From Ginglymostoma cirratum (lineage: Eukaryota): a stretch of 64,000 nucleotides of DNA. The notes under the pieces were generated by a model. That model was not told the DNA's origin and did no database searches. It saw only the letters and a list, made by a program, of their open reading frames with translations. This document shows, in pieces, positions 6,989 to 47,504 of the stretch. The position numbers were made by a program, and so were the translations under genes. Position 1 is the stretch's first letter; every line of letters starts with the position of its first letter. The stretch is from contig JAHRHZ010000141.1 in assembly GCA_024137785.1 (NCBI GenBank), forward strand, positions 1,589,944-1,653,943, given 5' to 3'.

Positions 6989-7009
6989 CAGCTTGTTCTT
7001 TTGCAAGTT
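6989..7009 (-). CDS. 21-nt heptad micro-exon, type B, (E)LAKEQA, GC donor
   Basis: Minus strand: catttctgttttcttacag|AACTTGCAAAAGAACAAGCTG|gcaagtg; homologous to the exons at 19606 and 32958. Confidence 0.8.
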
Positions 7010-7429
7010 CTGTAAGAAAACAGAAATGATTATTAAAGATCACCCCCCATGTCCAAATTCCATTCACATTTATAAACCTCATTGCAATCTATCTGTATCT
7101 CATTTGTGTTTTTTTTAATAACTTCTCTCTTTTGCTCGTCATCCGTGTCTAAAATTGCATACACTAAAGCATTGTTTATTGCTGATACTACCCAACATCA
7201 AGCATTCCTTTACAATCTTACATTTTTCTATTATTAGGCAAAATTCTAGCGTAATCAAAGATGATATTCTTTAAGGAACAATATTGACCACATCCAGTGT
7301 ATTTACTTGAACCATATCCAATTGCGATAATGGAATGTATTGGATCGCAGAGTGCAGAGTTCTTTACAGATCCGATTAAGTGTAGTTAAGTGAAGGCTCA
7401 ACAACAGCAGTTTGTTCCAATTTGAACAT

Positions 7430-10400
7430 TAATCGAATAAGATTAAAAGACGTAAAAGGAAAAGAGTACTTATTAAATAAATTTTAAAAAGGAAAAAGGA
7501 GGGTAAAAGTCAATGAACCGCACGCCTGTCTGGCCGTCGTTGACACTTCGATCGATGGCAGGTCTGGAGGCCGATCTTATTCCTAGCACCGTTCACAATT
7601 CTGGTCGAAGGCGAAATTCAATGGCTTGGAAGAAAACTCTGTCTTATACAGATCAACAACCAGAAAGGCACATAAAAATAAACAATTACAGAAGACAAAA
7701 CTTTTGGCCAGTATAGAAAACAGCTACTGAAAAAAGAAGCTACATGTGTCATCTTCAACAGATAAAGACATGTCCACAGGATCTATTCAAGGCCATGCAG
7801 CATGCCAAATATCCTCATTAACTTTCCCAGCCTATTTTACCATCACATAAATCTGTTTTCTCATACACCTTTGAATATCATCATTAGCCTTCAGCCCTTC
7901 GGTCCATTCTATGCATTCCACCCCGATGATATTTGACAAAGCATGTTTCATTTGTAAATGTAGATGCACACCAACAGTGTGCACTAGGATTCATAATAAG
8001 AACATTTAACCTGCACCAAAAATGCAAAACTACAATTAAAATAACTAGCATCACTATAAATAATGCAATAATGCTATGTATCCTCAAAATAATTATCATG
8101 ACGAACTTTGGAGTTCGATCCTTATACATATCTCACCCCTAAAGCAACGTCAAGACACTAATAGAATCAGCAAGCTGTGCCAACTGATTAAGGCGACCAG
8201 AATATCGACTACATTCTTTTTCAGTTAATACATTTACATGTTTTGCTTCAAAATTCAGTATATTCCAGAGTCAAGTTCTTTAATTTGTGTGTTTTTTTAT
8301 CCTCCAGCTCCCTATCCACAAAACACTTCCTCCATATGCAAGTAACACCTTTTGATTTATCATATATATGGTATCCAACAATACATCTCGAGCGTTCACC
8401 AGGTTTTCACAATGAATTATGCTTATGACTTTTAGTGTTCCCAGATTCCGTTGCCACAGACGCCTGCACTACCCGAGTCTTAGCTTAACCTTCTTCTGCA
8501 TACACATACTGCCCTAACACGTTACAATTTCACTAGCTGGTTTAATCATACAAACGCTTAAGATGAGGGACCTGTTCGTCATCTGAGGGGCACTTTCACT
8601 CAGTCCACCATTACTTCTCCCAGAGTTCAAATTCTTCCATTTTTGTATCATTTTGACATAATAACGAATCATTTGTTTTTTATTTTGGCATAATTCTTCT
8701 TATATCCCTTTCACTAATACCATTTTCATTGTTTAAAATTATGTTCCTCAGTGTCTTACCGTTTACGCAATGATTTCGAGCTCTTCAAAGCCGCACTAAT
8801 CCTTTTGTCAAGTATTCTCCATGTCTGAGACCAGTTCTTCAGGACATGTTTTTTTTTTCTACGTTTCATGTTTGTTACCTTTGAGGTAACATTTCCTTTC
8901 ACACATTTACATCGGTGGTCTAGGACTATGTCACGTATTTTGGACTCCCATATGATTTCATCAAATGACCAATGAGATTTTACTTGTCCCTCCACATATC
9001 GTCAGGATGCCTTGGGTAGCTTGATCGCCAATTCAACTTGTCTTAAAATGAAAGACAAGGACACAGACATCAGCAAGAGGAAGCTGTCAGTTTGGTACAT
9101 TTGTCCAAACTCATTTTCACTCAAATGGATTTTAACCTCAATTCCATTTGGAACTAATTATTGCACTTTAATTGTCTTCTGCCACCAGTCTCCACCCCAA
9201 TTACACCGTCTCAGCCAATTTTGCAACTAAACTGTTACCAACATGTTTAATTGAACAGATCTGTATATTCTTGTAGTCCATAGAAAGTAATATTACCATA
9301 TTTTAAAACAGAAGTTCAACATGTGTACGTGAATCACTAGCAACATATTTTGTTTTCCTTTTCCTCTACGATTAGCCACTTGTTGAGTCATTCTAGATAT
9401 TTCATATATGCTGATAGAAATTTATCCAATTTGAATATTCTATTTACTCCATTAAAGTCACTAACCATTTTTGTATGCATTGAAATCACTGAAACTGTAT
9501 TCGTACTCACTGCTATTTTCCAGAATACCTTTAATTTTTCAGGTTACTATTCTATTTTAACGTTTTGGAATAACAAGGTATGTGATAATTAATACAATTT
9601 TTACATGACATGATTAAGTGAACCCAGGCTCAGTGGTTTCAAGGTTCATGACATTCATTATAATTGATATTTCCATAGTACTTGCCCAACAATAAAACAC
9701 GTTATTGATGAATTGCTTGATGGTTTAAGGGTACTCATCCAGCCCTGTGTTCTGTGGTTTCAATTGTACAAATGGGTTCAGGCTTCAATGTTTACAACTT
9801 TCAATATAAAAATAAACAAACTCCATCCATTGTACCTCAAGCAGAATGGCTTAATTAGTATTAAGTTGATATAGATGCAGAAAATGGATTGTGGGGGGGG
9901 AGGGGGAGGGATAAAGTTCAGCATTACGTCATCCTTGCTGCTGCTCCTTGAAGGAAGAGAGTGCCCATCCCTTTGTTAAATTAGTGTTTCCTAAACTCCA
10001 AGCAACACAGGAAGGTGAATTTTCAAAATCCCAATTTCCTTATTACTTCAATATTAACAATGATTCAATCTTATCATATGGAATTAAATATTCACACGTG
10101 GTAAAACAATACGTTGAAGTTTAGTCTGACTGGAAAATGAAATTCCAGAAATGTAATTTTTGGAAGCAAATTTTACCCAACTCAAAACACACCACGATGC
10201 CAATTGCAAAGGCTACATATCTACCCAGCTTTACAAACAAAAATTTTGAATCAACATTTCGCAGATTTTGAGTTTACACAACCACTAATTATTTCTTCAC
10301 AGGACTTTCCTTTAACCATACTGTTCCACACTAATACAGGCACACATGAAACTCCCAAATCTCAAACTGACACTTTCAATTATTTGCAGATCTCGAGCTC

Positions 10401-10920
10401 CAGGGAACAAAAAGGCTCAAATTATACAAGACAACATTTAGCCATCAACAAACCAAAGTGCATTCCAACTTGACCGCAAAGAATTAACGCTTCCAGAAGA
10501 TTCATTAGATCTGAACAGCGCAGAAACCTGTCCTCTAGTTATCTCGACCGACAACTCGCCTGGAAGCTGAGTATTCTCCTGAACCCAATCACAATTCCAT
10601 TCAGAGGCAGAGTCCAATGACTTGGAATGGAACTCACTCACGCATACAGTGTAACAAACAACAGAACACAGAGAGCTAAAAACAACTATTCCAGAAGAAA
10701 GAAAAACCTGTGGGCAATACAGAAAAGAGCTACAGAAGAAAATAAAAACAAACTGCAGGTGTGGTGTTCAGTCTGGAAAGGAATTTTCATCAGACTCATT
10801 CAAGGTCATGCGACATGCCCAATATCATCATTAACTTTCCCAGGCTATTTTGCTATCCTGTATAATCTATTTTTTTCATGAAGCTGTCGAATATCATCTT
10901 TAACTTTTAGCCCTGGAACC
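7430..10920 (-). mobile_element. Old LTR-element remnant bounded by diverged direct repeats
   Basis: About 7690-7900 aligns with about 10690-10915 (ttcaaggccatgc...atatcctcattaactttcccag...gaatatcatc...agccct); interior is degraded with no clear ORF. Confidence 0.5.
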
Positions 10921-11009
10921 CATGCTACATAGTGGTGAATTGTTCAGCCATATCCCGTAAACTCCTTCGAGATCATACGCTCGTGCATTTTATTTTTCGC
11001 AGCATCTAC

Positions 11010-11030
11010 CTTGCTTGCAGTTTTTCAGAT
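11010..11030 (-). CDS. 21-nt heptad micro-exon, type A, (D)LKNCKQ
   Basis: Minus strand: cttttcctttcaactgtgtccttcag|ATCTGAAAAACTGCAAGCAAG|gtagat; differs from exon 55540 mostly at synonymous sites. Confidence 0.85.
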
Positions 11031-11373
11031 CTGAAGGACACAGTTGAAAGGAAAAGTATTACACCTTCAGCATATTTTTTTTTGATAAAACCAGTAAACT
11101 ATTTCAGTCACAATATTCCAATGCTGAGACAATTTACGGAGAAACAAAATCATATGATACTGCATTTATCACTTCACAAAAAAAGGAAGTTGAAAACATG
11201 GAATGTGCTGCCTCGCTGCAGCAATTCCATTAATTCAATGGTTTAGCTATTATTTTATTTCGCACGAAAATAAAATTGACAACTCAGTGGATAATAGTCA
11301 TTTCAACATCTTGAGAACTTAGTCACCAAAAGTTTATAGTAATGACATTTTTCAAGCAATTAATGTGTAACTT

Positions 11374-12725
11374 ATAGAGTCACATAGAGCCGTAGACTCA
11401 CACAGGGCAGAGACAGAACCCTTGGCTCACTATGCAAATGACAAAAAACAACCATCAAACTACATTAGAGATAATAGGAACTGCAGATGCTGGAGATTCC
11501 GAGATAACGAAATGTGGAGCTGGATGAACACAGCAGGCCAGGCAATATCATAGGAGCAGGAAAGCTTGATGTTTCGGGCCTAAACTCAGGGTCTAGGCCC
11601 GAAACGTAAAGCTTTCCTGCTCCTATGATGCTGCTTGACCTGCTGTGTTCATCCAGCTCCACTTCTTGTTATCAAACTACATTAATCTCATTTACCAGTA
11701 CTTGGTGAAACCTTGTGATGCGTTTATATTTTGAGTACTCACCCAGAAGCTTCTTAAAAAAAAAGGTCACTAAACAATCAGCCTCCACCACACTTTCAGG
11801 CTTCACATTCTGACACAACTGAGTGAAAACGTACTTCAAATAACTCCTATAAACCACTTGCTACTCACACAAAACTTATATCCTGTGGCGCTTGGCATGT
11901 CTGCGCTAGGCAAAAACTTCACAGGGTCTCTTCTGTCGATAAATCTAACAATTTTTGAACTCCACAAACAAATCCCCATTCACTCTCTTCTTCTCCCACA
12001 AAGAAGCAAACACAGAGTATTCAAACTCCTCCCTGAGACACTTAATCTTCGGAAACCTACTAGCAAATCTCTTCCTCACCATCTGAACCATATCAACCCC
12101 TTTCAATGGCAAACAGAATTGCACACTTTCTTCGAATTGTGGCCTAACTAATTCTTTCTAAACTTGAAACTCGTCTTCCTTGTTCCTATATTCTGCACAT
12201 ACGTCATCAATGCAAGCATCCAACATGCCTTCTTCACAACCCTGTACCTTCCAGGATCTATGATCTTGCACACCAAGTTCATTTTGTTCCTTAGTATTTT
12301 GGAGGAAAATATAATGCATTTTGTATGACATTTCCTTATCAGATCTCCCATGATGTATCAACTTGCATTAATTACAACCAATCTTCATCTGTCATTACTT
12401 TGCCCAATTTATCAGCTGACCAATAATCAGGCTGTGGTCTGAGACAATTTAGAAAATCACCTATTTTGAGCCATCTACGATCTTACTCATTATTACTTTT
12501 ACATCCACATTCATGTCATTAATCAAAGTACAACAAGTGGGAGAACATTAATCTTGTAGTATACCTGGTCACAGGTTCCAATTGCAAAAGCAAAAGACCA
12601 CCATGAAGCTTTGCCACACACTTGCAAGACAATTTGGCTCGAATCCCATTCACTCTTAACTTTGAGATCAGTTTACCATGTCTAAACTTGTCAAAAAAAC
12701 TTATTGCAGATTTGCAGAACAATAA
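11374..12725 (-). mobile_element. CR1/HER1-type LINE 3' fragment
   Basis: atagagtc/catagag tail repeats at the left end; ORF 12519-12722 FDKFRHGKLISKLRVNGI resembles CR1 RT AFDKVPHGRL..K...GI. Confidence 0.75.
11468..11670. mobile_element. Palindromic Penelope-terminus-derived insertion nested in CR1
   Basis: About 85-bp inverted arms; perfect flanking direct repeat ATCAAACTACATTA at 11454-11467 and 11671-11684. Confidence 0.9.
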
Positions 12726-14989
12726 TTTGAAACAACAAATTAAGTAATTGCCACTTCGACATGATAATCAACAATAGTATGCTCTTCGATCTATTCTATT
12801 TCTTAATATAATAGTTGAATGAAGAATTCACACTGATAACCTATTAAACCTATTACTTACACTCTGGCCCTCCTCAAGCACAATTGATGAGCGACACTAT
12901 TTTGCTTTCTTCACATATCCATGCACATACACTTTCTTGAGTTGTTTCCAACTTATTGAATCTGAAGTCCAGTGTGAAACAACGGAAAGAAAAACTCTTG
13001 CTGTTACCAGTATGCATTCATCAACATGAACCACTCAGCTAAATAGAAATTTCAAGTGTTGTTCCTTGTTCACGTTCTCGAAGTATCTCCTTTCTCGTGG
13101 ATTCCATCTATATGCTTCATGGGTTTCAGTAAAAAGCCAGAAAGACTAGTGTTTTGAAGATTACTGACCAATATCTGTTTCGACTGATTTTTATTCTGCT
13201 CTCTGCAGTCATGTTGCCAGTCTGACTGATAAAATTGGTGATCTTTTTGACTGTCACGCCATACCTTTCCCTGATGACATAGGATTCATTAGTGATTTGT
13301 CTTTTGAAATAAGGCATTGCAAACGAACCACACACACACACGCACACACAGAAGGCAATATTTGCAAATTGGTGCAATTTCCCAAACATGGTAAGGCATT
13401 TGTAAAACGATTTAGCAGCCCACGATTTTGTTGATATACAAACACTTCAGGAATCTTTGGATGTGCGTTTGAATTTCTGCCACATACACTGTTCATCTCA
13501 GTATCTTCCATTATTTGTGACGTTTGACTTTTTGGACTGCAAAAATCATTCTCCTTCTCTCAGGTCTTGCTGATATAATGCTATAGATGTTGCTTTTGGC
13601 ACCCTAAAATCAATTGAGATCACCCTATAACTTACAAAATGCAGCTTTAATGACGCTATGTTGTCAATATCGCACAATGGAGTGTTATTTAGCAAATTTA
13701 AATGGCACCTGTGATGATGCATATGAAATATGGTGAATAGAGTGTGGTTATTTTGTGTTATTTTTTAAAGACATATAGAGATAAAAAGGACTGACTCTGG
13801 AGACATTTACATGTCATGGCGAGCTTTAATTTTGAGAATGTTACATATGCTGTATTTGCAATGTTTCGAGATTTTATGTTTCAGAGCTGCTCACGTTCAG
13901 ATATTTTTAAAGTCTTTTTTTTGTTGAAGACTTACTTCCATTTGGAGGTATGATTTTCAGGTACACTTTGAAAAAGCAATTTCCTGAGTACACTATGGTG
14001 GTTACGAGATATATTTTCTATTTTCTTTTCTCAAGGGTTTGTGAAGGAACAAATGTTCCACGTTATTAAACATAGAACATTGTAAGTGTCGACGCAACTG
14101 GATAATTGTACCTATCTTTACTAAAAGACGATACAAACAGTTCCAGACTGACTACGTGTCTCTATACACCGTCATCATCCCCATTTTATTTTGGTAATCA
14201 TGTAACATTTTCTTTCTTAACCATTAAAAAAAACCTCCACGTCTATCTATTGCAGAAAACATCATAGAGTCATTAATTTCTACTAGGAAAAAAAAGTTTT
14301 TTTTAAATAAAAAATCTCGGATGAAACTTAGTGAGACTTTCTTCGAATGTCTGTGTGACTTGCTTCCAAGCGATCTACCCTACCCCCAATCAAAAATCAC
14401 AGCCTTATCTATTGCACACTTATTGGTCACATGTGCACTAATCATCTACGTTTCTACTGTATTAACTTTCATTATTCGAAACATTGGAAATTTGAGCCCA
14501 TCACCATAATGGCTGCTTTGGACACAATCCCTTCCGAGCAGGGATTTCCTTGATAATTTTTTTTTTTAAATTACATTATCAACATGTTAAGAACAGCTTT
14601 CTTTTCACGAGAATACATAAATGTGACGCAAAAACTGGAGTGATAATATAACAAAAACCATGCAAATTCAGGAACGGTTTTTCCTCTTCTACTGAAATTA
14701 AACCCTTCTTGGACGAAAAGTTACCATTCATATTTTCTACTGTTTCATATGTGTCTGGATATTAAACAGTCATGAACACACACCTTATTTTTGATACCAA
14801 CTCTTTCACTCAAAGTTTAAGAAGTTATACATTTCAATGTTTTTTTTCAAAAATACAATACTGTGCACTTATTTGCTAAATGTAGCAGCTAATATGCTCT
14901 CAACTTTCAAATCAGTTTAGCCTCCCTTGCATCCGAACAACTCAGATTCCAAACTGAGATTTTTTTCTTAATTGTCAGCATTTTTTTTT

Positions 14990-15082
14990 CTCAAGAAGGG
15001 TCTAGAACCGAAACGTCAGCTTTCCTGCTCCTCTGATGCTGCATGGCCTGCTGTGTTCATTCAGCTCTACACCTTGTTATCT
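14990..15082 (+). mobile_element. Single-arm Penelope terminus fragment
   Basis: gaagggtctagaaccgaaacgtcagctttcctgctcctctgatgctgc...ccttgttatct matches 1-140. Confidence 0.8.
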
Positions 15083-16709
15083 GCGATTATTCCATATATT
15101 TCTCACACGAAAACAATGTCCTTTGTTCGTGAGAATGTGCGTCTAAAACAGTTCATTTGCACATTCGAATACTAACAATCTGCCATTTTGAGAATGATTT
15201 GTTTATTTATATTTTCTGCCTTCAGATTGATAATGTGCGCAATACATTACGCCCATTTGAATATTTGCCAGTTTTGTTTATTTATCTTCTGATTTGGATC
15301 TTCAGAAATGTTTTCTGACAGTTTATTTCATTGATTAAGTCTTCGCTAACTTGGGAAACAAAAACTTAGCCTAAAAACATCTTCAACAGTTTGTTTTTCG
15401 TTAGACGGAATTGCATACATAAACGGAAATTGGCTTTGACAAATTAAGCCTTTTTTTCTAGTTATCCAGTATTCTACTTGTAAATTTTTGCAAACGATTT
15501 ACTTCAAAGAATGAAGGCTTTCATTTCTTTCTCTGTCAACCACGCTTTTAAAATGTAGGATTGCATTTAGTACTTTCTTGTGCAGGACCGTTCATAGAAT
15601 TATATAAGGTGCCTGACTATGCTATCATGCTTTCAATACTTTCCATTGACATCGTTTAATCGCACGTTGGTAGCTCTCACTAGGATTAACAAGTATTATT
15701 GAAAATTCGATTGCTAATTTACTAATTTATGTTTTGCTCTTCACATGTTTCTTCTGTTGATGGGTATTTGCGATATTCATTTTTTCCCTATTTCTACGAC
15801 CATGAAGACAAACCAATGATAATTGCTTGAATCAATGTTAAAGTCACATTATTTTTCGTTATAGTTTCCTTGGTATCCATGTGGAATGGACACAAGTTTT
15901 TTTTTGAGACAGTGTTCCCATTTGCTATGCGTTCAGTACATTTTGCAGTCTGTGAACATGTTAATCGTTGGTGTATTCTTTTATGTTATCACTTTTTCCT
16001 GCGTTACAAATTGCACAAATTCTTTTAAGTGAGACTTTTTTATCTCTTTCGTTTGCAACATTTTACATTATTTTTGCATTCGTGAAGTATTCTATATATA
16101 CTTACCACCGAAAAAAAATCAAATACATCTTTCTTGAGACGACGTGTCAGATCTTCAAGTATTTCGTCTCCCTCAACTATTGTGCCTTCTTTCATGCATG
16201 TAATTTATCGTAACGCAAAAGACACATACTTGCTTTTCTTAACTTGTTAACTGGAAAAGGTACCTTATTTTAAGAAAAAAAGGTACACCCATGAATGCTA
16301 ACTTGTGGAGAAGTGGTAGTGACACTACCCCGGACGTGGAAGCACAGGTACACGTTCCAATTGCTCCAGAGTTGTGTAATTACATCTCTGAATACGGAGA
16401 GAAGAAACGGAGATGAAATAAAACATACCAAAGGTGAACAAAATGCCCTCTTGTGTACCAGTGGTACTTTCCTGATCTTTGACTCACTCGGACCAAGTTC
16501 AAATCTCATCTGCTGCAGAACTGTGGCATGACATTCCTGAACTTTTTTTTTCCTTTTTTTTAAAGAAAAAGACTATAGGACAGTCTGTAGCGAACTGGGA
16601 CTAGCCTACCCAAGCCAATGATTTGGTTCTACTTTTCTGCGGCACAATAAATTCTTTTTCATTTTCAAGCGCTGTTCTTGTGTTAATGTAATACGTGACA
16701 TTAAGTACA

Positions 16710-18560: not shown

Positions 18561-19605
18561 AATACTCAATTTGGCGCTTTCTTTACATTCAATACTTTAA
18601 TAAACAAGTACAGTCCTTTTTATTGTGTTACATGCTTTTTGATTTCATGTTTTATTTTCACTCACTTCTTTTATTTTATTGTTCTTCACCTTTCCTCTCA
18701 TCGTAAATCTTTTTGATTCTCTGAATTATGACAGATGTTTGACGAACAGTATTTTTTTTTAATCTTTGTATCATCATTCATAACTTACCTTTGCCAAAAA
18801 ATGCCTTTCATTTCTTTTTTTACAGTTCTGATGTTAATTTGCTTTTACCAATCGCCCGTCAGTTTTGAATACCATTTCCGATTTTTAAAAAAAATTTGTT
18901 TATATGTGATTCAGCTTCAAAACTATCCATGTTCTGTTGTGCTGCCCCAGTTACAGTCTCATCTAAAAAAATTCATATTTTAATCTTCATAAGTTACGTT
19001 CTATATACTGTTAGAACTGATTAATTCTTCCTCAAAGCTGCTCTCTCTATTATTTTCCATCCCCATGAAATTTTCCATTTGGTATTCTTTCTCTTGAACT
19101 CGTCACCAATCCTCTACGCTGCTTATTATTCTCTGTCTAATTCCTTCGCTCCTCCGAACCCGGAACTGATTAGGACAGGCCTCACATGGCTGGATATTTA
19201 TTGATCATCTGTGGAATTCTACAGGTAACAAGCTAATGCATCTTTCTCTTGCCGTGATTAATGCAAGCTTCCAGTTCAGAGAAGTAGGAGAGTCTGATCA
19301 TCACTCACAGTAAAGTGATTCTGTTTCTATTGCCCGAATTGTTATGTATATTCATATTTCTCTGTATCAGTGTGCATATCTCTGCCAGTCTCAGCACTCA
19401 CAGTTCTATCACTGCACTGAAAAACTGATCACATGCACCTATTTATTGCATTAAAAGAGGAAGGAATCTTACACATTGTTGGTTAAAAGGCGGATATTTA
19501 GCGATAATACTTGACCATCATGTATAATTTTTATACCAGCGTCACACTTATCACAGTTTCCGCAAGATTTACATAAATACAGACAAACGTGTTAACTCTG
19601 CTTAC

Positions 19606-19626
19606 CTGATTTTTCTTTTGCGAGAT
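19606..19626 (-). CDS. 21-nt heptad micro-exon, type B, (D)LAKEKS
   Basis: Minus strand: gtgttttgttttcaag|ATCTCGCAAAAGAAAAATCAG|gtaagc. Confidence 0.88.
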
Positions 19627-21904: not shown

Positions 21905-23810
21905 TTCCCATCTAGCCAGAAGTGAAACTAGGTTTGTAAGGTGCTGTCTCAAGATCTTTGGTAAATTTCTGCATTGTATCTTTTAGATAAGATGCGTTGT
22001 TGGTACTCAGCTTTGATGGTGGAAGAAATGGTTTCCATTTGATCTCGTGCCATTCAAGTGTTTTTTTTTTCTCCAGGATGGCATCGAGCCTCATGAGTGT
22101 TGTTAGAGCATCCACCACAATCCTGACTTGTGCCCTGTAAATGATACAGGGGCTTTGAGAAGTCAGGAGTGGAGTTAGTTTCGACAATATTCGTGGCCTC
22201 TGACATACCCTTCAGGCCATTGTGTTTATAGGGAGTCTAATTGAGTTTCTGGTCAATGTTAACGCGCAGGATGTTGATTGTGGGGGATTAGTGATGCTAA
22301 TACCATCAAATATCAAGGAGCAGTGGTTAGTTTGTCCCTTACTGATGATCGGCATAACACGGCATTTATGTGACGCAAATGTCACTTGCCACTTGTCTGT
22401 CAATGCATGAGTATTGTCTAGATCTTGTTGCATTTTAAAACGAGCTGCTTTAGTATCTGAGGAGTCGTGTATGGTGCTCAATACTGTGCAACCATTGACA
22501 AACATCCCTCCTTTGTTATATTATGGTGGAAAGGTAATTGATGAAGCAGCTGAAGATTGTTGGGCCGAGTACTTTACCCTAAGGCACTCCTACAGGGATT
22601 TCCTGGAGCTGAGATGACTGGCCTCCAACAACCACGGCCATCCTCCTATTTGGCATGGACGAATGTCAACAGAGAGATTGTCCCCCGGTTCCCATTGACT
22701 CCAGTTTGGCTAAAGCTTCTTGATGATATGTTTGGTAGTATACAGCCTTGATGTCAAGGGTTGTCACTCTCAACTCACCTCCGGATTTAAGCTCTATTTT
22801 CCATGTTTGAAACAAGACTGTAATGAGATCCGGAGCTGAGTGCACCTGGTGAAACCTAACCTGTGGGTCACTGAGCAGGTTATGGCTGAGCAAGTACTGC
22901 TTTATAACAGTGATAGTGACATATTCCATCACGTTACTGATGGTTAACAGTCGATTGGGCAGTAATTGCACGAGTTCGATCTGTCCTTTTTTTTAAAATG
23001 TACTAGCGATACTTGGAAAGAGTTCCACATTTCCAGGTAGATGCCAGTGCTGTGCTTGGACTGGAACCACTTGGCTAGGGGAAAGGCAAGTTCAGGAGCA
23101 CAAGACTTCAGTACTCTTTCCGGAACATTGTCATGGCCCACAGCCTATGCAGGATCCAGTGCCTCCAACCGTTTTTAGATATCAAGTAGAGTGAATCGAA
23201 TTGTCTGAAGACTGGTATCTGTAATCCTGCTTCCACTGGAGGAGGCTGAGATGGATCTTCCACTCGGCACTTCTGGCTGAAGATGACAACAGCCTTATCC
23301 TTGGTATCAATGTTCTGGGATATTTCATCATTGAGAATGAGTTGCTTAATCGTCCACCATTACTCACCAATAGATGTGGCAGAACAGCAGTGCTTAAGTC
23401 TGACCCATTACTTTTGCTATCACTTAGCACTGTCTATCTCTTGCTGCTAATGCTGTCTGACATGCATGTCGTCCTGTCTGCTGGTTTCCACAAGTTGACA
23501 AGTTATCTTCATTTAGCCTTACAGTACTCCTGGTAAGTCTTCTGGCAGTCTTCATTGAGCCAGAATTGATCCCATGGCTGAATATTAATGGTTGAGTTGG
23601 AGATATGCCAAGCCTTGAGATTGTAGATTGTGCTGGAGTACAATCCCGTTGCTGTTGATGGCAGGTAGTGCTTGAAGGAAGCCCAGTCTTAAGTTGTTGG
23701 ACCTGCTCGAATTGTGTCCCATTTAGTACGATGATAGTGCCACACAAAGTGATGGAGGTTATTCTCAGTGTGAAGATGGAATCTCATCTCCATAAGGACA
23801 GTGCAGTTGT
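21905..23810 (-). mobile_element. CR1/L2-group LINE ORF2 remnant (RT)
   Basis: ORFs 22212-22505 (MFVNGCT..., from FADD; QQDLDN...DKWQVTF...KC), 22666-22971 (LDIKA) and 22944-23141 (G.DN.P.RVLK.CAPELA.PL) are frameshifted RT segments. Confidence 0.85.
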
Positions 23811-23989
23811 GTTTAGTGCGTGTCTTGTGAAAAAAGCACCATTTTTACAGTCTATTCAGATGTGATACTGCAGTATGGAATGACAGCTGCAAGTCCAGTC
23901 GGCATATCAATTATGACCAGCAAATTCTGATTCCCACATTTCATTTTACCTAGGTTTCCAACACATTCAATTAATACCCTTGTAACAGT

Positions 23990-25645
23990 TTTCGAATGCG
24001 GGAATGAAAATTAATAGGGCTTATTTCATCCCGGCTAGAGATTTTCCAATTGCCTGACAGATATTACATGCTAGGCAGAATTCAGTCACTCCCCCGAACG
24101 AAGTCTAGGCCAAAGCCAAAGGAATAAAAAAAGTTTTCTTATTTAGGACTGAGTTGTCCTTGCTTCCAATGAGATAATACTGGTAATTCATTTGCTACGG
24201 TCAAAAACTTTTCCTATAACCCATTGGTAATATGCCTTGATGATCTCCTGTTCATTTTTCAATCGCCTGAATGCGTGATGCTTTCTATTTCCTCATCAAG
24301 ACATCATATTTAAGTTTACAACATTCTGGGATAAACTCAGCTTAATCTTCTGTGTATGTTTTTGTAAAGCTGATAGTTTTTTCCTCTTGCTGTTGTAATT
24401 CACCAACTCACTCTGAACTAAAAATATTCACTTTTTCTACCGTCTGTTCTTCTTTCTGTTTAATAATTTGGTCAGACATAATCTCTGTCAAATAATCTTC
24501 AACTTCCTTATCTTTATTCTTTGACGTTTTCCTCCTGGTTCAATGTGCGGCTTTGTGAACTTGTCATTACCTGGTCAGGAAAAATTCCAGAATATGCTTC
24601 GTGTGACACCTGAATTTTCACTGGCGTTTCAACTAATCACATATTAGCGCCATATGTTTACTATTTTTGAATATACTTTTCCACTTATGAAAATTATTTA
24701 GTTTGACCCTTTCAAACTCAATGTCCGTTTGAACAGCATGCATCCTTAGATTGCTAAAAAGCTTTTTGTAGGCTTCTGGCACTGGCTTGTACACACGTTT
24801 GATAGCCTTTTTCACTTCCTCACACACACTAGATAACTCCTCTGATCATCATGCAAATGCCTCATTACTTTGCCTACCAACTTTGTTTGAATCAACAACA
24901 CCCACACAGTCAACAGGTATTTGTTTTTTTTTCAGTCATTTCTTGAACTAAAGTGAAAAGAGTTTTCAACATCCTTATTTTCGAAATTAAAAGCTCTTGG
25001 ACACATTTATGCAGACTCCCACAGGGTGTTGGACTACGAAGGTTTTACTCTCCGTCGGTACCCTATTCATTACTCCTTCTTTTCTTCTTTACCTCCACCA
25101 TCTAACTCGACATTCTTCTATAAGTGCAAACTTCTGAAGATCAAACTCTCTCTTTTTGCGTTTCTTCTCTCTCTTTCTCCCTTTCAACTATTATGGTTAT
25201 TCCTTGCTTTTATTGTTTTCCTCAGCTCGGTCTATTCCTTCCATTATTTTGTTTATAATTCAAACTGTTTCATTTGCACTTGGACTTTTAGCGTTTTCCA
25301 AATATTGCAATGGCATTCCTGGCATTTGTAAATGCGACTCTATTGCCACAGGTACTTCCCCTTTTCTCAGGGACAAAGAAAAGTCCAACTTCAGCTTTCC
25401 CACCAATTCCAAAAGTTTTATCTTGTTCACTTCATGTAAAACTCACGAAATGGCATCTTCCCCCCTGAGGAAGCTCTTAGTCCCTGAAAGATGCATTTTT
25501 GAACAAGGCACACCATGCTAAAATTAGTTGAATTCAACACTGGAAGTAGAAGACACTAACAGTTCCCAAAGACTTTTGCATTTGAGACTAATAATCTTAA
25601 ATCCAAGATGGAATTAGAATATTGGATCTCAACAAGAGCCCCAAA
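23990..25645 (-). mobile_element. Gypsy (Gmr1-like) gag remnant
   Basis: ORF 24633-24827 EEVKKAIKRVYKPVPEAYKKLFSNLR...EFERVK matches the Gmr1-type gag motif VK.AIL.AYELVPEAYRQ.FR; degenerate tRNA-Pro PBS-like sequence at about 25626-25643. Confidence 0.75.
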
Positions 25646-25647
25646 TT

Positions 25648-26260
25648 TGCCATGGAATAGACCATACCCCCTCAAGTATGTTCAGAGGATATCTTACATC
25701 ATTTTCTTTCTTATCGTAAAAGTAAATTTCAGGGTCTTTTTCAATTTCAATTTGATTAATCAAACCACTGAACGGTAAGCAAAACACAACTTATTTAAAC
25801 ACTCTAATTAAAATATATTAACGTGAGAAGAACTGGGAATAACTTAAATCTGTTGGAAAACTTCACAGAATAAAATGTGTAATAACGATTCGTAATTATT
25901 TGGGCCTTCATAACAACGTCCCACAAACATATCCTCGGCAAAAGGCAGATTAAGAAATCGGATTAACTCACATGCAGTTATCCAATGCAGGCATGATGGG
26001 ATTCAAAAGACAATCATGAGAGTAGATGTGTAGAAGCCAGGATATGTCCACTGCCTTCCAACTGTGCAGGTGAAAGTTAACTAAAAATCATGGATCTTTC
26101 AGAGTTTAAGCATACTTAACCAAGCTGCTTTTAGTGTTGCAATTGAATTAAAACCTGACATATTGTTTAACTTCTGATAGACTACTCAGTGTCTTTTCGA
26201 CAGGCTATCTTGAAAGAAACGAGAACAAAACACATCCCTTAACGCCTCAACTTCACTGTA
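25648..26260 (-). mobile_element. 5' LTR of the Gypsy remnant
   Basis: Abuts the PBS-like site; homologous to 55767-56387 (agacca-tacc-ccctca; cctcggcaaaa-ggca; tccaat-cagg). Confidence 0.65.
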
Positions 26261-28873
26261 AGCTTTTCAACATTCTCAGTCTGACAACTATTCTCTGTGC
26301 TTTCTGACAATTACGTTTCACTTACGTCATCTCCCCTCCTCTCATTCGCCATCAATTTATGCCCACAGTTTGAGATGATATCCCATGATGGCCTGAAAGC
26401 ACTTTTCCCCTCAAGAATTGCTGCGCGCTATGCATGAAGTCCTTGCAGAAAGTAAAATGTGGCAGACTGTGGGTTAACGTCTCAGGAAACTGAAGATTCT
26501 GACAACAAAACACCTAGATCAGAAGTCTTTAAAGAAACCTCTATTTAATTCCATGCCATTTGGAGTATTACACCGCAGGGATGTAAACACGTCTTTATAA
26601 ACATGTTGTCTGTTAAATATCTTAATCTTAGCCGCTGATTACTGCTCGACCTTGTTAACCTAAATTCCGTCAAAACACCAGGCTGAAATGCATTCCAGCC
26701 TAATCGGCATTTACTCTATAGCCACGATTCGATAACTTTTGAACAGCAGACTCTTGCCATACTGCCACAAGATTTAAAACTCTCACTGTATATCGTGTAC
26801 AAGACAAGGCTCCATGAGTCAATTGTTGCTTCTTCTACTGTCAAATTAAGCAGTCACTATCCTGAAGAAAGTATTTGTCTATAACATCCAGAAGTCACAG
26901 TATGCACTTGACTTACAAATACATTCTCTGTAACAAGATTTGTCTCTCCTCCTTTGTCACCAGTACGATAACAGTGCACTAACGCAGGAACTGATATAAT
27001 AGTCAAAGCCGAGGATACTTTGCACTCAAGAACAGGTTTCCCGCTTTACCCAATCCAAAATAATGTTCATCCTTTTCCCAGCCTGCACCCAATTCCTATG
27101 TTGCATTAACAGAAATTACTCCTCCGTATTCACGTGAACTGGACACCGTAAATGCATCTCATGGAACCCAAAAACAAGACGCTCTCCTGACTCTGCTCAA
27201 CCCACTTTTCCAGAATGCTCCCAACATTGTTGGACCAAGACCCCATGTAGCCCTCAGCTTCACCTCTGAATCATTGTTCACTTGCAAAATTATAGGCGGT
27301 CACAATAATTACTTTGCATATGACCTCATCAGTGCATCGATATATGAAATTAACATCTTGCATTATAAATTAACGTTTTAGACACGCTAAGATGACTTAA
27401 TTCGCGTTTATGGGAGAAAATGGCATTTTAACTGAAAGTCAGAATGTTCTTTATGTGATGGACTTTAAAAAAAGAAAACTTTCTGAAGAATAAGGCCAAA
27501 GCGGGAAAATGAGGTTTTCATGTGGGTTTCATCGTTTTAAGCTAGAAATGTGGGACTTTATTTTTTCAATGTCTCGAGGGAGTTTAAAATGACTTTATTG
27601 GAACGTGATGGATGCGTGTTCGCCGAATATCGCAAAGATACAGATGCTTGTTTACAAGAGAGTCAAAGGTTATCAGGACTATATCATTGATATGAAATTC
27701 AGAAAACAAGCAGTTCAGGCATTGCCCTATCGAATGATCGGGCCAAACGTCACAATTTGATCCGTAACTTGGTGCCCTTATTTTTAGTTCCTTGGAAAAG
27801 CACGATGCTTTTGACCAGAAACAATTCACCTGGATGTATGACACGGTCTAATATATGTTAAATATCTTTTGTGACATTACAGCACATGTCTCAGTACACA
27901 AACTGTAGCATTCCGCATTCGTTCCTATTTCACTTCCAATCAGGACTGTCTTTCAAAATGAGCTACACACATATACAACCAGCTCGTTTTTCTCGCTTAT
28001 CTCGGTTACAGGCCTGAACCATACTTTATATTATCTCTTCGTGTTCTACTGCCAACACATATTGCTTAGCCTTTGTCAGTGTTGCACTTCGTTTGCTACC
28101 TCTTCAGCCTCGATATGGATATTAATTTTTAAAACTATTCCCTTCATATTTTGCAATTGCACTGTAATGATGTGATGTGCCTGTATAATGCAAAATATCT
28201 GGAATTATGGGTCCACCACTGACCCTGTTGGAATATCCACTCCAAACGACCGAACAGCCTCAGCTTACATTGTACCAGTTAAAGTAACTGTATATTATGA
28301 ATTCATCAGTAATTTTGCTCGTTACTATCTTGCGCTGTGTTATAGCAAGTATCTCCTGGGAGACCACATAGACAACTTTAGCCACATTGCCCTGTTCAAT
28401 CGGCAATTATTTAACATTCCAACAATCTCGAGTGTTCTACTTAAGCATTATCTTCGATCTTCACGAATGAGGCCCACGGGGAGTTTAAAATATATGCTTA
28501 TTTTACAAAACAATTTCGTTTTGACTGCATTATTTTTTTTTTCTTTGTAAATCACACCAAAGTCTTAAATTAAACGGGTGAATATAAAGCGCACCTGCTT
28601 CGTATAAATGAACATTTTTACTTAAACAAAGTCCGAAGTCTGCTGTCATATAGATCTCTGGCGCTGTGTGTCTGATTGTAAGGAGAACTGTAAACTTGTT
28701 GTATGCATTCTCAAAATGCTTGCATAAAACATATCCAATGCCAAGGCCTTCTCACATTTTCAGTGGAGACAGCTCATCCCATAAAGCCTCTTCTGAAATT
28801 TGATTGAGTTCTACCAGATGGAATTCAATAACAGTTGGTTTGCTTCGTAATTCATGTTCAGCTATGAGTAAAA

Positions 28874-29570
28874 ACATAGAATCATCGAGTCAAACAGCAT
28901 GGAAAGAGATCCATCCATCTCACCAGTCCATTGTGACCACGTTCCCAAACTAAAGTCGTTCTGCTTGCCTCAGTTTGGTCCGTATCCCTCCAAACATTTC
29001 CTATTAATGTGCTTTTCCAAATATGTCTTAAATTTCATAATTGTACCTGCACACATCACTATCGCTGGTTTTCCCAAATAAAAGCTATCCCTCGTGTCGT
29101 TTTTAAATCTTTCTCTTTTGATCTTAACAATACGCCCCCGTCTTCAAATCCACCACTCTAGGGAAAATGCCTTGTTGTTCACGTTAACGCTGTTCACCTT
29201 ACCTATGCCCCTCTTGATTTCATAAACTTCTATCAAATCACACTCCAATTCCTCTGTTTTTGTGAAAATGGTCCCAGCCTAAACAAGCTATTCAAGCCCT
29301 CCATTCTAGCAGTATCCTCGTAAAACTTTTCTGAACCTTCTTGAGTTAAATACGACCCTACATATAATAGTGAGACTAGACCTGCACAAAACAAATCCAG
29401 AAGAGAAATCACCTACATCCTCTAAAATCTAAACATGATGCCGCAACTCCTGTATTCAAATGTCTGAAGAATGAAGACAAGCGTGTCAAATGCCTTCTTA
29501 AACATCCTGTCTAACTGTGACCCAAGTTTCAGTGAATTATGTACTTGAACCCCTAAACATCTATTTATTT
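28874..29570 (-). mobile_element. CR1/HER1 LINE 3' fragment
   Basis: catagaatcat tail; ORF 29422-29673 LGVQVHNSLKLGSQLDRMFKKAFDTLVFI...EYRS is the CR1 ORF2 C-terminus. Confidence 0.85.
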
Positions 29571-30152
29571 CATACACATGACGTTCTGCTCCAATGTCTA
29601 ATTCGATTTTTTGAACTCGATATGACCCCACTAGGCTTTTCATGAACACATTTACGTTTGCTATGCAAGTCAAAATCCTTGCATTTCATTTGACTTGATA
29701 AGTGCAGTCATCCCTTCTTTGCATACCATTTTCAGTAATACTCAGCCTGGCTTCAATCATACCTCATCACCAGCATCTACTGAATGCAAACATCATTGTC
29801 ATTATCATACTTTCCATCATGGTAATCATGTGGACGTTCTGTATTTCTGTGTCCATGCCAATTAAAACTAGCTGATTGTAAGTTTCTCTTATTTAAGTAT
29901 CGCCGTTTGGCTGCTCCTGAATTCCTTCAGAATGCTTTTGTTCAGATTGATGGACCCAGATGATCTTTTGGTCTTCTGGATTGATAACAATATGACGTCA
30001 ATGTTTTCCATGAACTTTCTTTTTTCTCTGTCATTTTAACTCTGAATGCAACGTCATTTCCATAAAAAAAAGTAGTTTTGTGATCAAAACGTACGGAATT
30101 CTGTTCTATCTGTGAAAATCAAACTTATCATAAGTAGATTTTTAATGCTATG

Positions 30153-30365
30153 CAGAGAAAATAGAGTGTGGAGCTGGAGGAACCCCGCAGGACAGGCAGA
30201 ATCAGAGGAGCAGGAAAGTTTCGTTCGGGACTCTTCCTCAGAATTGGGTCCTGACCCGAAACGTTACATTTCCAGATCCTCTGATTCTGCCTGGACTGCT
30301 GTGTTCCTCCAGTTCCACTCTGTGTTATCTTGACTGCAGCATCTGCAGTTCTAGTTATCTTCTTG
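30153..30365. mobile_element. Palindromic Penelope-terminus-derived insertion
   Basis: Inverted arms; flanks TTAATGCTATG (30142-30152) and TTAATACTATG (30366-30376). Confidence 0.8.
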
Positions 30366-30856
30366 TTAATACTATGTTTCCCTTATCTGCTTGCTCTTTT
30401 GTAAAAACTGCATGGCAAACAGTGTATGCTTTAAAAAATACTTTATATTGAAGTCGCGAAAACAAAGAAAATCACAAGTCACAATTGAAATTGTGAAACA
30501 ATATTCGATATCGTGTCAGCAGATGAATCCATACAATTGTTCTGTCTTCTTATTACATGTTCTGATTCTAAGAATGCAGGACTGATTTCTTGTTCTTTAT
30601 GATTCTAAGAATTCTACCATGAAATTATCTTTATTGCTTAGTAGAATTCGTTTCTAGTACTTTTGTACATGAAAGAGGGAGCCTTCGTCACTCAATGCAT
30701 CATAATGTCTGTTTTAGGAGTTGGGAACGTATACTGAAAACATCATTTTATTAATGACAAACTACTTATATCTGAAGTCTTGTTTTGGTTACTATGACAT
30801 GCTGACAACACGCCTGTAGTATTTTAAGCGCCCACATGTCTTGGTCAAATACTCAC

Positions 30857-30877
30857 CTTCTTTGAAAATCTTCAGAT
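30857..30877 (-). CDS. 21-nt heptad micro-exon, type A, (D)LKIFKE
   Basis: Minus strand: ttttttctctacaatgactcacag|ATCTGAAGATTTTCAAAGAAG|gtgagt. Confidence 0.88.
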
Positions 30878-31804
30878 CTGTGAGTCATTGTAGAGAAAAA
30901 AAAAATGTCTTTTTCTACAAGGTATTATTAGTATGTTCAGTTAATTAAGGTCAGCGATGGCAAAACAGAATTACAATAATAAATTTGATAAGTAGCAGAT
31001 ATTTTTATTAATTTTGTTACATTTGGAAATGTATATGAAAAAATCCAAGCTTCGCCATTTCCGTATATCCATGACAGCAGTACGTGTTATGTTATCTTCC
31101 TAAACGATAGGATACTGTTACCTCTATCCACCTACAGGCTCGTGCCCGTTGATGATTGCTTTTAATAAATATTTCCTTCCTTTGAGATGGGATATTCCCT
31201 TGCCATTTTTAGATGGGGGGAGCTTTCACATCTCGCCTCTCAACAGTAACAAATACTCAGTTTTCGACTGTTTCCACAACGTTAATACTTGCTCCATGAT
31301 AGGTTTACTACCTTTAAGTCCCCTGATCTTAATCTTTTTTATGTACTATTGCTTTTACGCCTTTGTAAATTATCATTGAAAGCAGGCATTTTAAATAGGC
31401 TCAACTCATTTCACACTAAATGTACAATATTTGCAAGTGACTAGCAGTATTGATTTAACCGTCGGATCGATTTCACAATTTGAATCATATCGTTCAGGAA
31501 TTCGCGCCTTCCAAAAAAAAAATTCAAATGTAGGCATACTGTTCAATCGTCAAAGCTACATCGTTGTATCACTCTGACGGAAGCATACTCTGTTTATCAG
31601 CTTCTGCATTTGTTTAAGTCGAATATTTAAAACTGATCAACAGTTGTAAAATCGACCATCGATGTGGATGCTTTGCTATGCCATTCTTAGCATGCAAAAG
31701 AAACTAATTTCACACATTTCGAACTTTCTCTTTGTTCCCTCTCTCCTGTCATCAGTGTCGTTTTAGAATAACTTTTTTGGCTTGGATTGCTGTACCCATT
31801 CCTC

Positions 31805-32594
31805 TGTGTAAAAACTTAAGTTCGTTTTTCGAGACCCTCACGGACTTGATGCAATAACAAGACATTGACCTGTTTAGAAAAACACAATTCCTTTATTACA
31901 AAGCAAGTACAAGCTGTGGAGGATCACTGTACTCAACCAGGCACAGAGTGTAGAGTCTCGTGAGCAGTTCTCCCCGAGCAGCGGACAGTCCCCACTTTTT
32001 ATACCTAATCGAGTGCATAATACATAAAGCAATTTTATATCTCACAATGGCATGTTACATGAAACAATCACTACATCGGACAATGACATGATAACACAAA
32101 CAATTACTACATCGAAAACATAAAGAAAGCAGGATACAGAATCGATTGTTCACAATGCGACTGCTAACAGCAGGAGGCGATTTCAAGTTGCCGAAGTGAC
32201 AGAATGTAAATTCAAGCTGCCAAAGTGTCTGGCTTGAACAAAGGTCAGTGTCCTGGCCCCTTTAACAGAAACAGAAGTCATATTCTTTACAGGATTTCAG
32301 AAGTCTCACACCTTTACAAACGTTGCCGCCTAATCTTATTTGAGACAGCTTCCACATACCCCTGTGCAGGAAGATAAAGATTTACAAAGTTTATACCTAA
32401 TTCTATTCAGGCAGGAAGCTTAAGGCAGTGTCTTTTCTACTTATGTGTAGGAAGGTAAGGATTTACAAAGTTTTACACCTAATTCTAGTTGAGCAGGAAG
32501 TTTTAAGGCAATGCCTGCATTCCTCTGTGTAAGCAGATAAAGAGCATTAATTTATAGAGAGTATAGAAATCAATGGGATGTTATCCCAATAACA
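31805..32594 (-). mobile_element. Solo LTR, ERV-like
   Basis: TG...CA ends; minus-strand TATAAAAA (31996-32003) followed by AATAAA (31892-31897); tandem ~81-bp repeats in the U3-like part; TSD imperfect (cctc/tctc). Confidence 0.65.
32361..32543. repeat. Tandem ~81-bp direct repeat, about 2.3 copies
   Basis: gtg.aggaag.taa.gatttacaaagttt...cctaattcta...gcaggaag...taaggca occurs twice, plus a partial third copy. Confidence 0.85.
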
Positions 32595-32957
32595 TCTCAC
32601 TTACACCTCACATTTTATCGCTGTCTTCTACAACCAAGATGTCTACACTTATTCTTATAAATATGGTTGCATGTGGCTTTCAGTGCTCCAATTAACGGAA
32701 ATGGAGCAGTTTCATTTCATGGCTTCGACTTGTTTCCCGGATGCGGTCAGATATTTTCTACACTTTGTTGCTTAGAAAAGTTGTCTCTTACTTCCATAGC
32801 AACTATGGAAGTAAATCTGTCTTGGCTGCAAATATGGTGTCACCATATCGTGGCAATTTCCGTTCAGTGTCGAGTAAATGTAATTAAATTTGATTCAAAA
32901 AGAAGCTTCATGCTATCGTATCATCGCCATGGTTTACAGAACATGCATAATACTCGC

Positions 32958-32978
32958 CTGCTTTCTCCTTTGCAAGAT
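32958..32978 (-). CDS. 21-nt heptad micro-exon, type B, (D)LAKEKA, GC donor
   Basis: Minus strand: tttttgttctctctgcag|ATCTTGCAAAGGAGAAAGCAG|gcgagt; 3 of 4 differences from exon 19606 are synonymous in phase 1. Confidence 0.85.
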
Positions 32979-33388
32979 CTGCAGAGAGAACAAAAATGAC
33001 CGTGATTAAACATTCAGTCCGAAAAACAAGCAACCACAAATAAATCTCGGGGCACCTTTATAAACAGATGCATTCTTTCAAGTATAGGCTATTGAATTTT
33101 TTCTCATTAAAGTCGAAAATTATCATAATCAAGAAAGAAAATTTTGGACACGTTATTAGTTCCTTTTTATAAAGCAATTGCATTTCTGACTCCCGATGCA
33201 TGAAAATTTGCCTAGTTCATGTTTGAGGACTGCCAATAGTCCTTAATCGAAGTCAGACTTTGGATTGTGAACAAGAATATTTAATCACGTGTTTCCGGTA
33301 TACTCAATCTGTTCTTATGGTTACATTTTCTTTCATTGAAACTATTTTCCGTATTGAATCATATTTCGGTAATTATAAGAACTCTCAC

Positions 33389-33409
33389 CCTCTTTCCCTT
33401 TCTTCAGAT
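33389..33409 (-). CDS. 21-nt heptad micro-exon, type A, (D)LKKGKE
   Basis: Minus strand: ttatgttttggtgaactgaag|ATCTGAAGAAAGGGAAAGAGG|gtgaga; acceptor weaker than the others. Confidence 0.78.
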
Positions 33410-47483: not shown

Positions 47484-47504
47484 CTTCTTGGGCACTTGCA
47501 AAAG
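47484..47504 (-). CDS. 21-nt heptad micro-exon, divergent B-like, (A)FASAQE
   Basis: Minus strand: gtactttatcctgtag|CTTTTGCAAGTGCCCAAGAAG|gtaaga; right length, phase and terminal G, but weaker homology to the others. Confidence 0.65.

Follow-up and report, generated by a model that had tools for sequence, protein, structure and literature searches.

We have found 121 exons of 21 nt, free of stops and all in symmetric phase 1-1, arrayed over 609 kb of a shark contig (C141); the array was delimited by a splice-site and profile scan. On balance, its sequence points to one very large gene, at least 800 kb long, that would encode a long parallel two-stranded coiled coil. We consider it very likely that these are genuine exons, most of them joined by splicing in a single reading frame. 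What is new here is a size more than three times that of its known counterpart, the tail of chicken BG, together with a different heptad register, a division of the exons into two classes and 18 dead copies that survive as a fossil record.

A two-class array of 21-nt exons

The window, that is, the whole 64-kb stretch of DNA presented, carries just the first 8 of about 120 array exons. All eight are 21 nt long, lie on the minus strand in phase 1-1 and are preceded by AG; the donor is GT in six and GC in two (32958, 6989). Two dead B-type copies (37819-37839 and 30387-30407) were missing from the exon list of a preliminary description of this DNA. In transcript order the features are:

55540..55560, minus strand: exon 1, class A, 21 nt, phase 1-1; opens the 21-nt array
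47484..47504, minus strand: exon 2, divergent class B, 21 nt; groups with B on the tree
37819..37839, minus strand: dead B-type copy, acceptor AG lost, donor kept; B-profile score 17.2
33389..33409, minus strand: exon 3, class A, 21 nt; acceptor tract weak
32958..32978, minus strand: exon 4, class B, 21 nt; GC donor
30857..30877, minus strand: exon 5, class A, 21 nt
30387..30407, minus strand: dead B-type copy, donor GT lost, acceptor kept
19606..19626, minus strand: exon 6, class B, 21 nt
11010..11030, minus strand: exon 7, class A, 21 nt
6989..7009, minus strand: exon 8, class B, 21 nt; GC donor

The second dead copy follows an A exon at 449 nt, a distance usual for A to B (median 437 nt). 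As a control, dead B-profile sites numbered 11 on the minus strand and none on the plus strand. Every item of the preliminary description held within the window: the exons translate in phase 1 as it gave them and alternate at 7/7 junctions, the introns it put at about 0.4 to 14 kb measure 8035, 14074, 410, 2080, 11230, 8575 and 4000 nt, and three residues beyond Leu the four A exons have C, G, F and C, the three typical B exons E.

The array continues 553 kb past the low end of the window, to C141:1036490. Of the AG-21nt-GT/GC candidates in the 924 kb surrounding the window, 123 of 5187 on the minus strand scored at least 14, vs 1 of 4882 on the plus strand, an inverted A copy. The array exons are far beyond chance expectation. 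Classes A and B alternate at 100 of the 120 junctions between stop-free exons (mean 60 and maximum 85 in 100,000 shuffles), with the earliest break after exon 20. The alternation had been called strict, which is true of the first 20 exons but not of the whole gene; the two-heptad period is likewise maintained softly and not as a strict rule. Since 20 of 120 junctions join exons of the same class, alternation is not essential.

A tree was built from the 122 exons with intact splice sites, each with 40 nt of flank per side. The classes separated on it, as the preliminary description had proposed, with 3/122 exons misplaced and a support of 0.74, and nearest-neighbour comparison of intron flanks alone placed 109/122 exons in the correct class. 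Judged from these sequences, A and B are supported as two old exon lineages. This much of the earlier proposal of growth by ancient exon-pair duplication stands, but pair duplication alone does not account for the array, the middle of which grew in blocks of about 4, 6 and 11 exons; the 11-exon block has a B-B junction built in and was copied several times. Because blocks were duplicated, neither the 145 paralogous exon pairs nor the 18 losses are independent. These pairs, non-independent as they are, share 85% identity in the exons vs 63% in ungapped flanks, with pN 0.126 vs pS 0.24. They show purifying selection, and a pN/pS near 0.5 is constraint of moderate degree only.

Every exon is frame-neutral, and transcripts could therefore use varying subsets of them; equally, tandem genes or a partly dead gene might have been read as one. 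We regard this alternative as very unlikely. It would fit the 18 dead copies among 139 array sites, the one exon of 122 with intact splice sites that carries a stop, the one inverted copy and one displaced block, the runs of N that break up the array, and our retrieving no annotated shark protein for the array in sequence searches. Neutral simulation at flank divergence, however, leaves 40% of exons intact, whereas 121/122 are stop-free; moreover, no internal exon of larger size stood out within the array as the sign of a gene boundary, and a test block from it matched at this locus alone.

Alignment of 36 exon-derived peptides gave no protein at E <=10 among 7998 candidates scored, which is weak evidence. 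No sequencing runs were found for the one 251-nt stretch looked up, a result that carries no information on expression. A literature search, with most subscription journals outside its reach, returned no paper on the gene or on shark heptad micro-exon arrays. A suggested likeness to the small exons of human TSBP1/C6orf10 found no confirmation in a literature listing.

Predicted coiled coil and the order of its heptads

Among the seven possible registers, the best places a at codon 2 and d at codon 5, with a core fraction of 0.68 hydrophobic (Ala and Cys counted). In this register, 46 of 122 g-e' pairs are attractive vs 2 repulsive. A heptads have Leu at a and Cys, Ala or Tyr at d; B heptads have Leu at a and Glu or Gln at d. 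There are 29 Cys in the 854 residues and 28 of them occupy d of A heptads (codon 5 is Cys in 28/56 A exons vs 1/66 B exons), the other half of the A exons having Ala, Tyr or other residues there. It had been suggested that the Cys residues could lie at a helix interface, and a codon 5 at d agrees with this. A coiled-coil dimer with Cys at d is thus predicted, and we judge it likely, from sequence statistics only. Glu or Gln at every second d makes a poor core and counts against the coiled-coil rod.

In our reading, each exon would supply one heptad of a two-stranded rod. An A heptad would clamp the dimer through its residues at a and d and an Asp/Glu-Lys g-e' salt bridge, and a B heptad, with Glu or Gln at d, would form a loose segment. 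Alternation of clamp and loose segments would yield a stable yet flexible rod, its 21-nt part measuring about 126 nm. The array would have grown by amplification of an ancestral A-B pair, later in blocks of 4-11 exons, and losses that preserve the alternation would have been favoured.

The dead copies bear on this last step. Removing them lowers the number of same-class junctions from 26 to 20, where random loss would give 29-30, so that losses tend to preserve alternation (P about 0.003, range 0.002-0.004, for loss events that are not independent); the test counts recognisable dead copies, wholly deleted exons falling outside it. Several losses removed a single surplus B, turning A-B-B or B-B-A into plain alternation, and both window copies are of this kind. 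In three cases adjacent A+B copies were lost together; three losses of single exons introduced breaks. We lean towards the view that alternation is kept partly through selection on the protein.

Alternation might instead be a by-product of gene structure and splicing, the protein needing only a long charged helix, and we hold this to be improbable. The partner of a dead exon would then be co-skipped and decay neutrally. A and B lie about 440 nt apart and the next A several kb off (median introns of 437 nt from A to B vs 3438 nt from B to A), which would put duplication breakpoints between pairs. The spacing of the paired dead copies, 200-600 nt in two of three cases, speaks for such a by-product, as does the copying of a B-B junction within the 11-exon block. 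Co-skipping does not, however, predict the single surplus-B losses that restored alternation, and class-specific residues are conserved although the introns are about 30% diverged.

Flanking DNA and a neighbouring B30.2 gene

Downstream of the 21-nt array, in the same phase and heptad register, lie candidate exons of 36, 30 and 27 nt, about 23 of 27-36 nt in all, chosen by eye from candidate lists. Over 190 kb, candidates of 27, 30 and 36 nt number 12, 10 and 13 on the minus strand vs 4, 1 and 2 on the plus strand. Large hydrophobic residues or Cys occupy codons 2, 5 and 9 of 83%, 83% and 75% of the 36-nt exons (n=12), and codon 4 of 8/10 27-nt exons; the two sizes share one continuous register and form a phase 1-1 three-heptad unit. 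Exon candidates are still present at 845 kb, the end of the DNA scanned, in which neither end of the gene was found. Two further candidates beyond the last 21-nt exon, of 75 and 33 nt, fall within an LTR-bounded element and were discarded for that reason.

On the same contig and strand lies a gene with a B30.2 exon at C141:2.651 Mb (SPRY, Pfam E 1.5e-16); phase 1-1 exons of 21, 24, 27 and 36 nt come ahead of it, the 3' order of the gene being 21, 21 and 27 nt and then B30.2. The two genes share the phase 1-1 36- and 27-nt exons and the three-heptad unit. For an adjacent 36+27 pair of the neighbour, the top-scoring partners are two such adjacent pairs in the array gene (8/21 identities), and 1 of 100,000 shuffles scored as high, for a pair picked after the likeness was noticed. 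The array gene differs in its additional 609-kb two-heptad 21-nt array, and its own B30.2 end was not found. Sequence likeness suggests that it is probably a paralogue of this B30.2-ended neighbour; that it has its own B30.2 end we give an even chance. By paralogy, the rod would belong to the neighbour's B30.2 (PRY-SPRY) family and would provide a B30.2 head with a dimerising spacer or a tether to the cytoskeleton, by analogy with what has been proposed for the BG tail.

Genome-wide searches detected no B30.2 downstream on C141 (150/165, 133/133 and 149/149 candidates scored), the last of them also failing to detect the PRY part of the neighbour itself. Local profiles over 1.01 Mb gave no B30.2, IgV or transmembrane exon and one weak plus-strand fragment; beyond the last exon seen, the DNA so scanned ends about 220 kb short of the next gene. 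Upstream of 55540, about 208 kb contained no more array-type exons, no IgV by motif or phmmer match and no signal-peptide or transmembrane candidate that stood out, a further ~800 kb upstream being outside the scan. Well-spliced candidates in the first 108 kb upstream included no window of mean hydropathy >2. An IgV query from a shark butyrophilin (BTN) matched 35 sites in the genome, none on C141 (58/58 candidates scored), and a V-set family search found no exon near the array among 150 of 809 candidates scored. A search for such exons with a DNA pattern gave 170 matches, of which the 100 listed end before C141, and is uninformative there. For a C-type lectin head there were 33 matches (93/93 candidates scored), none on C141, in a search whose sensitivity is reduced by split exons.

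The nearest strong upstream candidates, of 36 nt (C141:1705244) and 111 nt (C141:1721919), are not hydrophobic. The latter, an unconfirmed candidate exon, is single copy in the genome; it had no relative by word search and no Pfam match, and Atlas gave only unnamed short clusters with weak recognition. Its one library match, to the WD40-repeat protein P0001 (E 6e-5), was dismissed as chance.

A secreted protein or ectodomain stalk, in which an inter-chain disulfide ladder would build a structural fibre or tetherin-like tether and not a cytoplasmic B30.2 carrier, seems to us quite unlikely. The concentration of Cys at d of A heptads would suit it, as would the phase 1 of all exons, which is typical of secreted and membrane modules, and the failure of the searches made to find a B30.2 downstream. 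Opposed to it are the roughly 208 kb of upstream DNA scanned, in which no signal-peptide or transmembrane candidate stood out, the Ala, Tyr or other residues at the Cys position in half of the A exons, and the closest relative found, which ends in B30.2; butyrophilins and TRIM proteins carry this domain on the cytoplasmic side (available text of PMC8813856 and PMC4046983).

Comparison with BG, butyrophilins and TRIM proteins

The array makes it possible to ask directly, as is rarely the case, whether selection acts on heptad order in a coiled coil at the level of single exons. It also indicates a very large vertebrate gene, with no annotated protein retrieved, and a shark gene family that may bear on the origin of the butyrophilin, BG and TRIM B30.2 architectures. 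The most far-reaching version is tentative and, taken jointly, rather doubtful: an unannotated family of giant shark genes, with a BG-like rod independent of birds, exon-level selection and a B30.2 head. Such a gene would approach 1 Mb and hold some 150 micro-exons or more, for a rod of 160 nm or longer; surplus exons would have been removed, or A and B lost together, keeping a clamp/loose code, and Cys at every second d could make up a redox-sensitive ladder.

The coiled coils of TRIM proteins are short, and larger exons encode them. In TRIM proteins with PRY-SPRY an oligomerising coiled coil precedes B30.2 (available text of PMC8813856), an order that the proposed shark rod would share if it carries a B30.2 head. 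In butyrophilins the stretch from the membrane to the B30.2 exon contains small phase 1-1 exons, and a conventional shark BTN in the same genome (C2:23.28 Mb) has 27-nt exon candidates in that stretch. A BTN has IgV, IgC and transmembrane exons and few heptads, whereas the shark gene has at least 121 heptad exons in addition to the candidates of 27-36 nt; IgV, IgC and transmembrane exons of BTN type were not found in the scanned DNA, which stops short of the 5' end.

The exon-per-heptad design is already known from chicken BG tails, the function of which is still open. In the available text of PMC4046983 and PMC5938342, BG has a long coiled coil whose heptads are each encoded by one of many 21-nt exons that begin with a split codon, a tail that contains Cys, and an exon number that varies by duplication and loss (13-36 21-nt exons in one haplotype, up to 37-38 repeats). 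The shark gene has the same kind of exon, and its 121 are over three times the longest chicken BG tail described there. The mostly hydrophobic a and d positions of BG are codons 4 and 7 (available text of PMC5938342); read in this way, the shark exons have a core fraction of 0.21 vs 0.68 for codons 2 and 5, where Glu or Gln stands at d in class B. Two-class alternation is a feature of the shark array, and none is described for BG in the parts of PMC4046983 and PMC5938342 available. BG also has signal, IgV and transmembrane exons, the last directly before the heptad exons; none was found near the shark array in the DNA scanned, nor was a transmembrane exon seen directly ahead of its heptad exons. 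Chicken BG forms a disulfide-linked dimer at the cell surface. The shark gene has a BG-like design that probably evolved independently.

Extent of the array

All eight 21-nt exons named in the preliminary description proved to be real, reading in phase 1 on the minus strand with AG and GT or GC flanks. Separated by introns of 410 to 14074 nt, they alternate between classes A and B at 7/7 junctions and represent array exons 1-8. Window positions (G000:C141:1589944-1653943 of the 4.36-Gb genome, where G000 is the assembly and C141 the contig) equal contig positions minus 1589943, and values above 64000 are C141 coordinates. A profile scan run without a splice requirement added two dead copies, a term used here for exon copies in which a splice site is missing or a stop or indel is present; both leave the alternation of intact exons unbroken.

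Window 37819: B-type copy, one splice site lost
Window 30387: B-type copy, one splice site lost

GC donors occur in three of 122 array exons, two of them B exons in the window (32958 and 6989). Window introns also carry pieces (44042-44652 and 49537-50393) of a repetitive retroelement whose frame is GIY-YIG-like; we take this retroelement to be Penelope-like.

Pattern searches located similar exons far along the contig, and approximately 1 Mb around the window was then analysed. Profiles grown from the 8 seed exons were scanned over both strands of 924 kb, and a score of >=14 was reached by 123/5187 minus-strand candidates versus 1/4882 plus-strand candidates. A single array accounts for 122 of the 123, running from C141 1645503 to 1036490 (609 kb), and the remaining exon lies in the 4.4-kb block listed below. 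One array exon has a stop, leaving 121 stop-free exons (55 A and 66 B), a minimum because N stretches, one of ~50 kb, interrupt the array. The gene is far larger than the window reveals. Three further features were located (L-numbers are sub-stretches).

L045:3437-3457 (C141:1133380), plus strand: inverted A-type 21-nt exon with good splice sites, inside the array
L053:4974-4994 (C141:1214917), minus strand: A-type exon with an in-frame stop and intact splice sites
L088:4318-8769 (C141:934261-938712): 4.4-kb block with one intact B exon, inside the 36/27-nt region

A scan of 12 kb detected no inverted B partner for the first. The block is 86-89% identical to array part C141:1364357-1368882 and is either a duplicate that was displaced or a sequence misplaced in the assembly.

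Alternation, growth and loss

The alternation, at first described as strict, is unbroken through exons 1-20 and fails at 20/120 junctions over the whole gene. Alternating junctions number 100/120, whereas 100,000 shuffles averaged 60 and never exceeded 85. Because class labels derive from seed-trained profiles, two checks less tied to those labels were added. A FastTree tree of each exon plus 40 nt on either side split A from B with 3/122 misplaced (support 0.74), and with intron flanks alone the nearest neighbour was of the same class for 109/122; the separate clades anticipated in the preliminary description were thus recovered. The A/B order represents an old two-heptad code, strongly yet not strictly kept. 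Exon L035:5958-5978 (minus strand, C141:1435901) groups by descent with B in the tree and has acquired the Cys and Lys that characterise A exons.

Growth by duplication of an exon pair had also been proposed. An ancient A-B pair fits, but pair duplication alone is insufficient, since subfamily order reveals units of ~6 exons (28-33, 34-39), 11 (56-66, 67-77; including a B-B junction) and 4 (84-87). Introns leading from A to B have a median of 437 nt (n=50), much shorter than the B-to-A median of 3438 nt (n=50). Self-comparison detected intron-containing blocks 63-89% alike across C141 1.24-1.50 Mb, and a genome search with one test block returned 29 matches, all on C141. These patterns agree with block duplication after an ancient A-B pair had formed.

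Dead copies make up 18/139 sites (13 by flank homology, 4 by profile scan and the stop-bearing exon), a count in which wholly deleted exons are invisible. Same-class junctions number 26 with dead copies restored and 20 without them, versus 29-30 after random removal of 18 sites (P 0.002 unmatched, 0.004 class-matched; P 0.02 in a preliminary version with 98 sites and 14 losses), although the losses are not independent because block duplication copies relics. Three A+B neighbours were lost as pairs and several surplus B copies singly; three single losses made alternation breaks. Some selection probably lies behind the kept alternation. Including the stop exon at C141:1214917 would end the protein after 105 heptads, and skipping it would preserve the alternation; 660 nt before this exon is a dead B copy.

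Flanking exons and the neighbouring B30.2 gene

The following features flank or adjoin the array.

C141 1705244: 36-nt candidate exon upstream, in the same register as the array
C141 1721919: 111-nt candidate exon upstream, unconfirmed
L064:7269 to L065:6254 (C141:1027212-1036197): element with 684-nt direct repeats, 85% alike, and broken plus-strand frames
L078:2884-3006 (C141:1826827), plus strand, opposite to the gene: short frame with a weak B30.2 profile match (E 0.001 in 24,355 ORFs)
L081:441-932 (C141:616003), plus strand: V-set Ig exon, 91% identical to Rhincodon typus LOC125487965

The LTR-bounded element, whose broken frames are presumably pol-like, fills the intron behind the last 21-nt exon. 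Beyond it, candidate phase 1-1 exons (36, 30 or 27 nt) continue to at least 845 kb, with 35 candidates of these sizes on the minus versus 7 on the plus strand in 190 kb; those downstream (eleven 36-nt, ten 27-nt and two 30-nt exons) were chosen by eye. A 36+27 pair equals three heptads in the register of the 21-nt array, and 3/12 36-nt exons start like A exons (profile scores 11.5-15.1). Because the stretch between the 21-nt and 36/27-nt arrays yielded no terminal exon, their belonging to one gene would be the simplest reading of the sequence. The V-set exon, apparently nectin-like, bounds the possible 3' end of the array gene.

No B30.2 exon of the array gene was found in genome-wide searches or with a local profile over 1.01 Mb; the frame at C141:1826827 is possibly a decayed one. 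IgV and transmembrane exons were not found by motif or profile in ~208 kb upstream, and a genome search for butyrophilin (BTN)-type IgV gave none on C141. The same strand does carry a SPRY exon ~1 Mb upstream (Atlas score 0.96), in a neighbouring micro-exon gene where phase 1-1 exons of 21, 24, 27 and 36 nt precede it. For the neighbour's adjacent 36+27 pair, the top scores were obtained with two pairs, likewise adjacent, in the array gene (BLOSUM 25 and 19; 18 and 24), and 1/100,000 shuffles scored as high as the first match, for a pair chosen after inspection. The comparison supports the array gene as a putative paralogue of the neighbour.

Predicted product and comparison with known systems

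The conceptual reading has 854 residues, is rich in Lys, Glu, Ala, Gln and Leu, and carries a net charge of +9. In 90% of exons codon 2 encodes a large hydrophobic residue, and the best core among 7 registers places a at codon 2 and d at codon 5, with 46 attractive versus 2 repulsive g-e' pairs. Position d in A exons holds Cys (28/56), followed by Ala and Tyr, and in B exons Glu (39/66) or Gln (14/66). Over 145 pairs, exons are 85% and flanks 63% conserved, the ungapped flank comparison understating identity, and pN/pS is 0.126/0.24. With the coiled-coil rise of 0.1485 nm per residue, 121 heptads would span ~126 nm. The gene most likely encodes a dimeric coiled coil, a long rod belonging to a B30.2-related family of shark micro-exon genes.

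A literature search found no published description of this gene. Butyrophilins, in the portions of the accounts consulted, combine few heptads with B30.2 (PMC8813856, PMC12841164). The nurse shark genome has a conventional butyrophilin gene (L099-L100, G000:C2:23278900-23289700) with IgV, IgC-like, transmembrane, 27-nt candidate and B30.2 exons, on contig C2, which holds the majority of the genome's B30.2 matches. According to excerpts of two reports, chicken B-G (BG) tails within a single haplotype are encoded by 13-36 exons of 21 nt (PMC4046983); BG repeats can reach 37-38 in number, and codons 4 and 7 provide positions a and d (PMC5938342). Against these excerpts the array gene departs from the BG register, its a and d falling at codons 2 and 5, and no membrane anchor was detected in the DNA examined, so we assign it to neither BG nor BTN. 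What it shares with BG tails, as those excerpts describe them, is the exon-per-heptad design.
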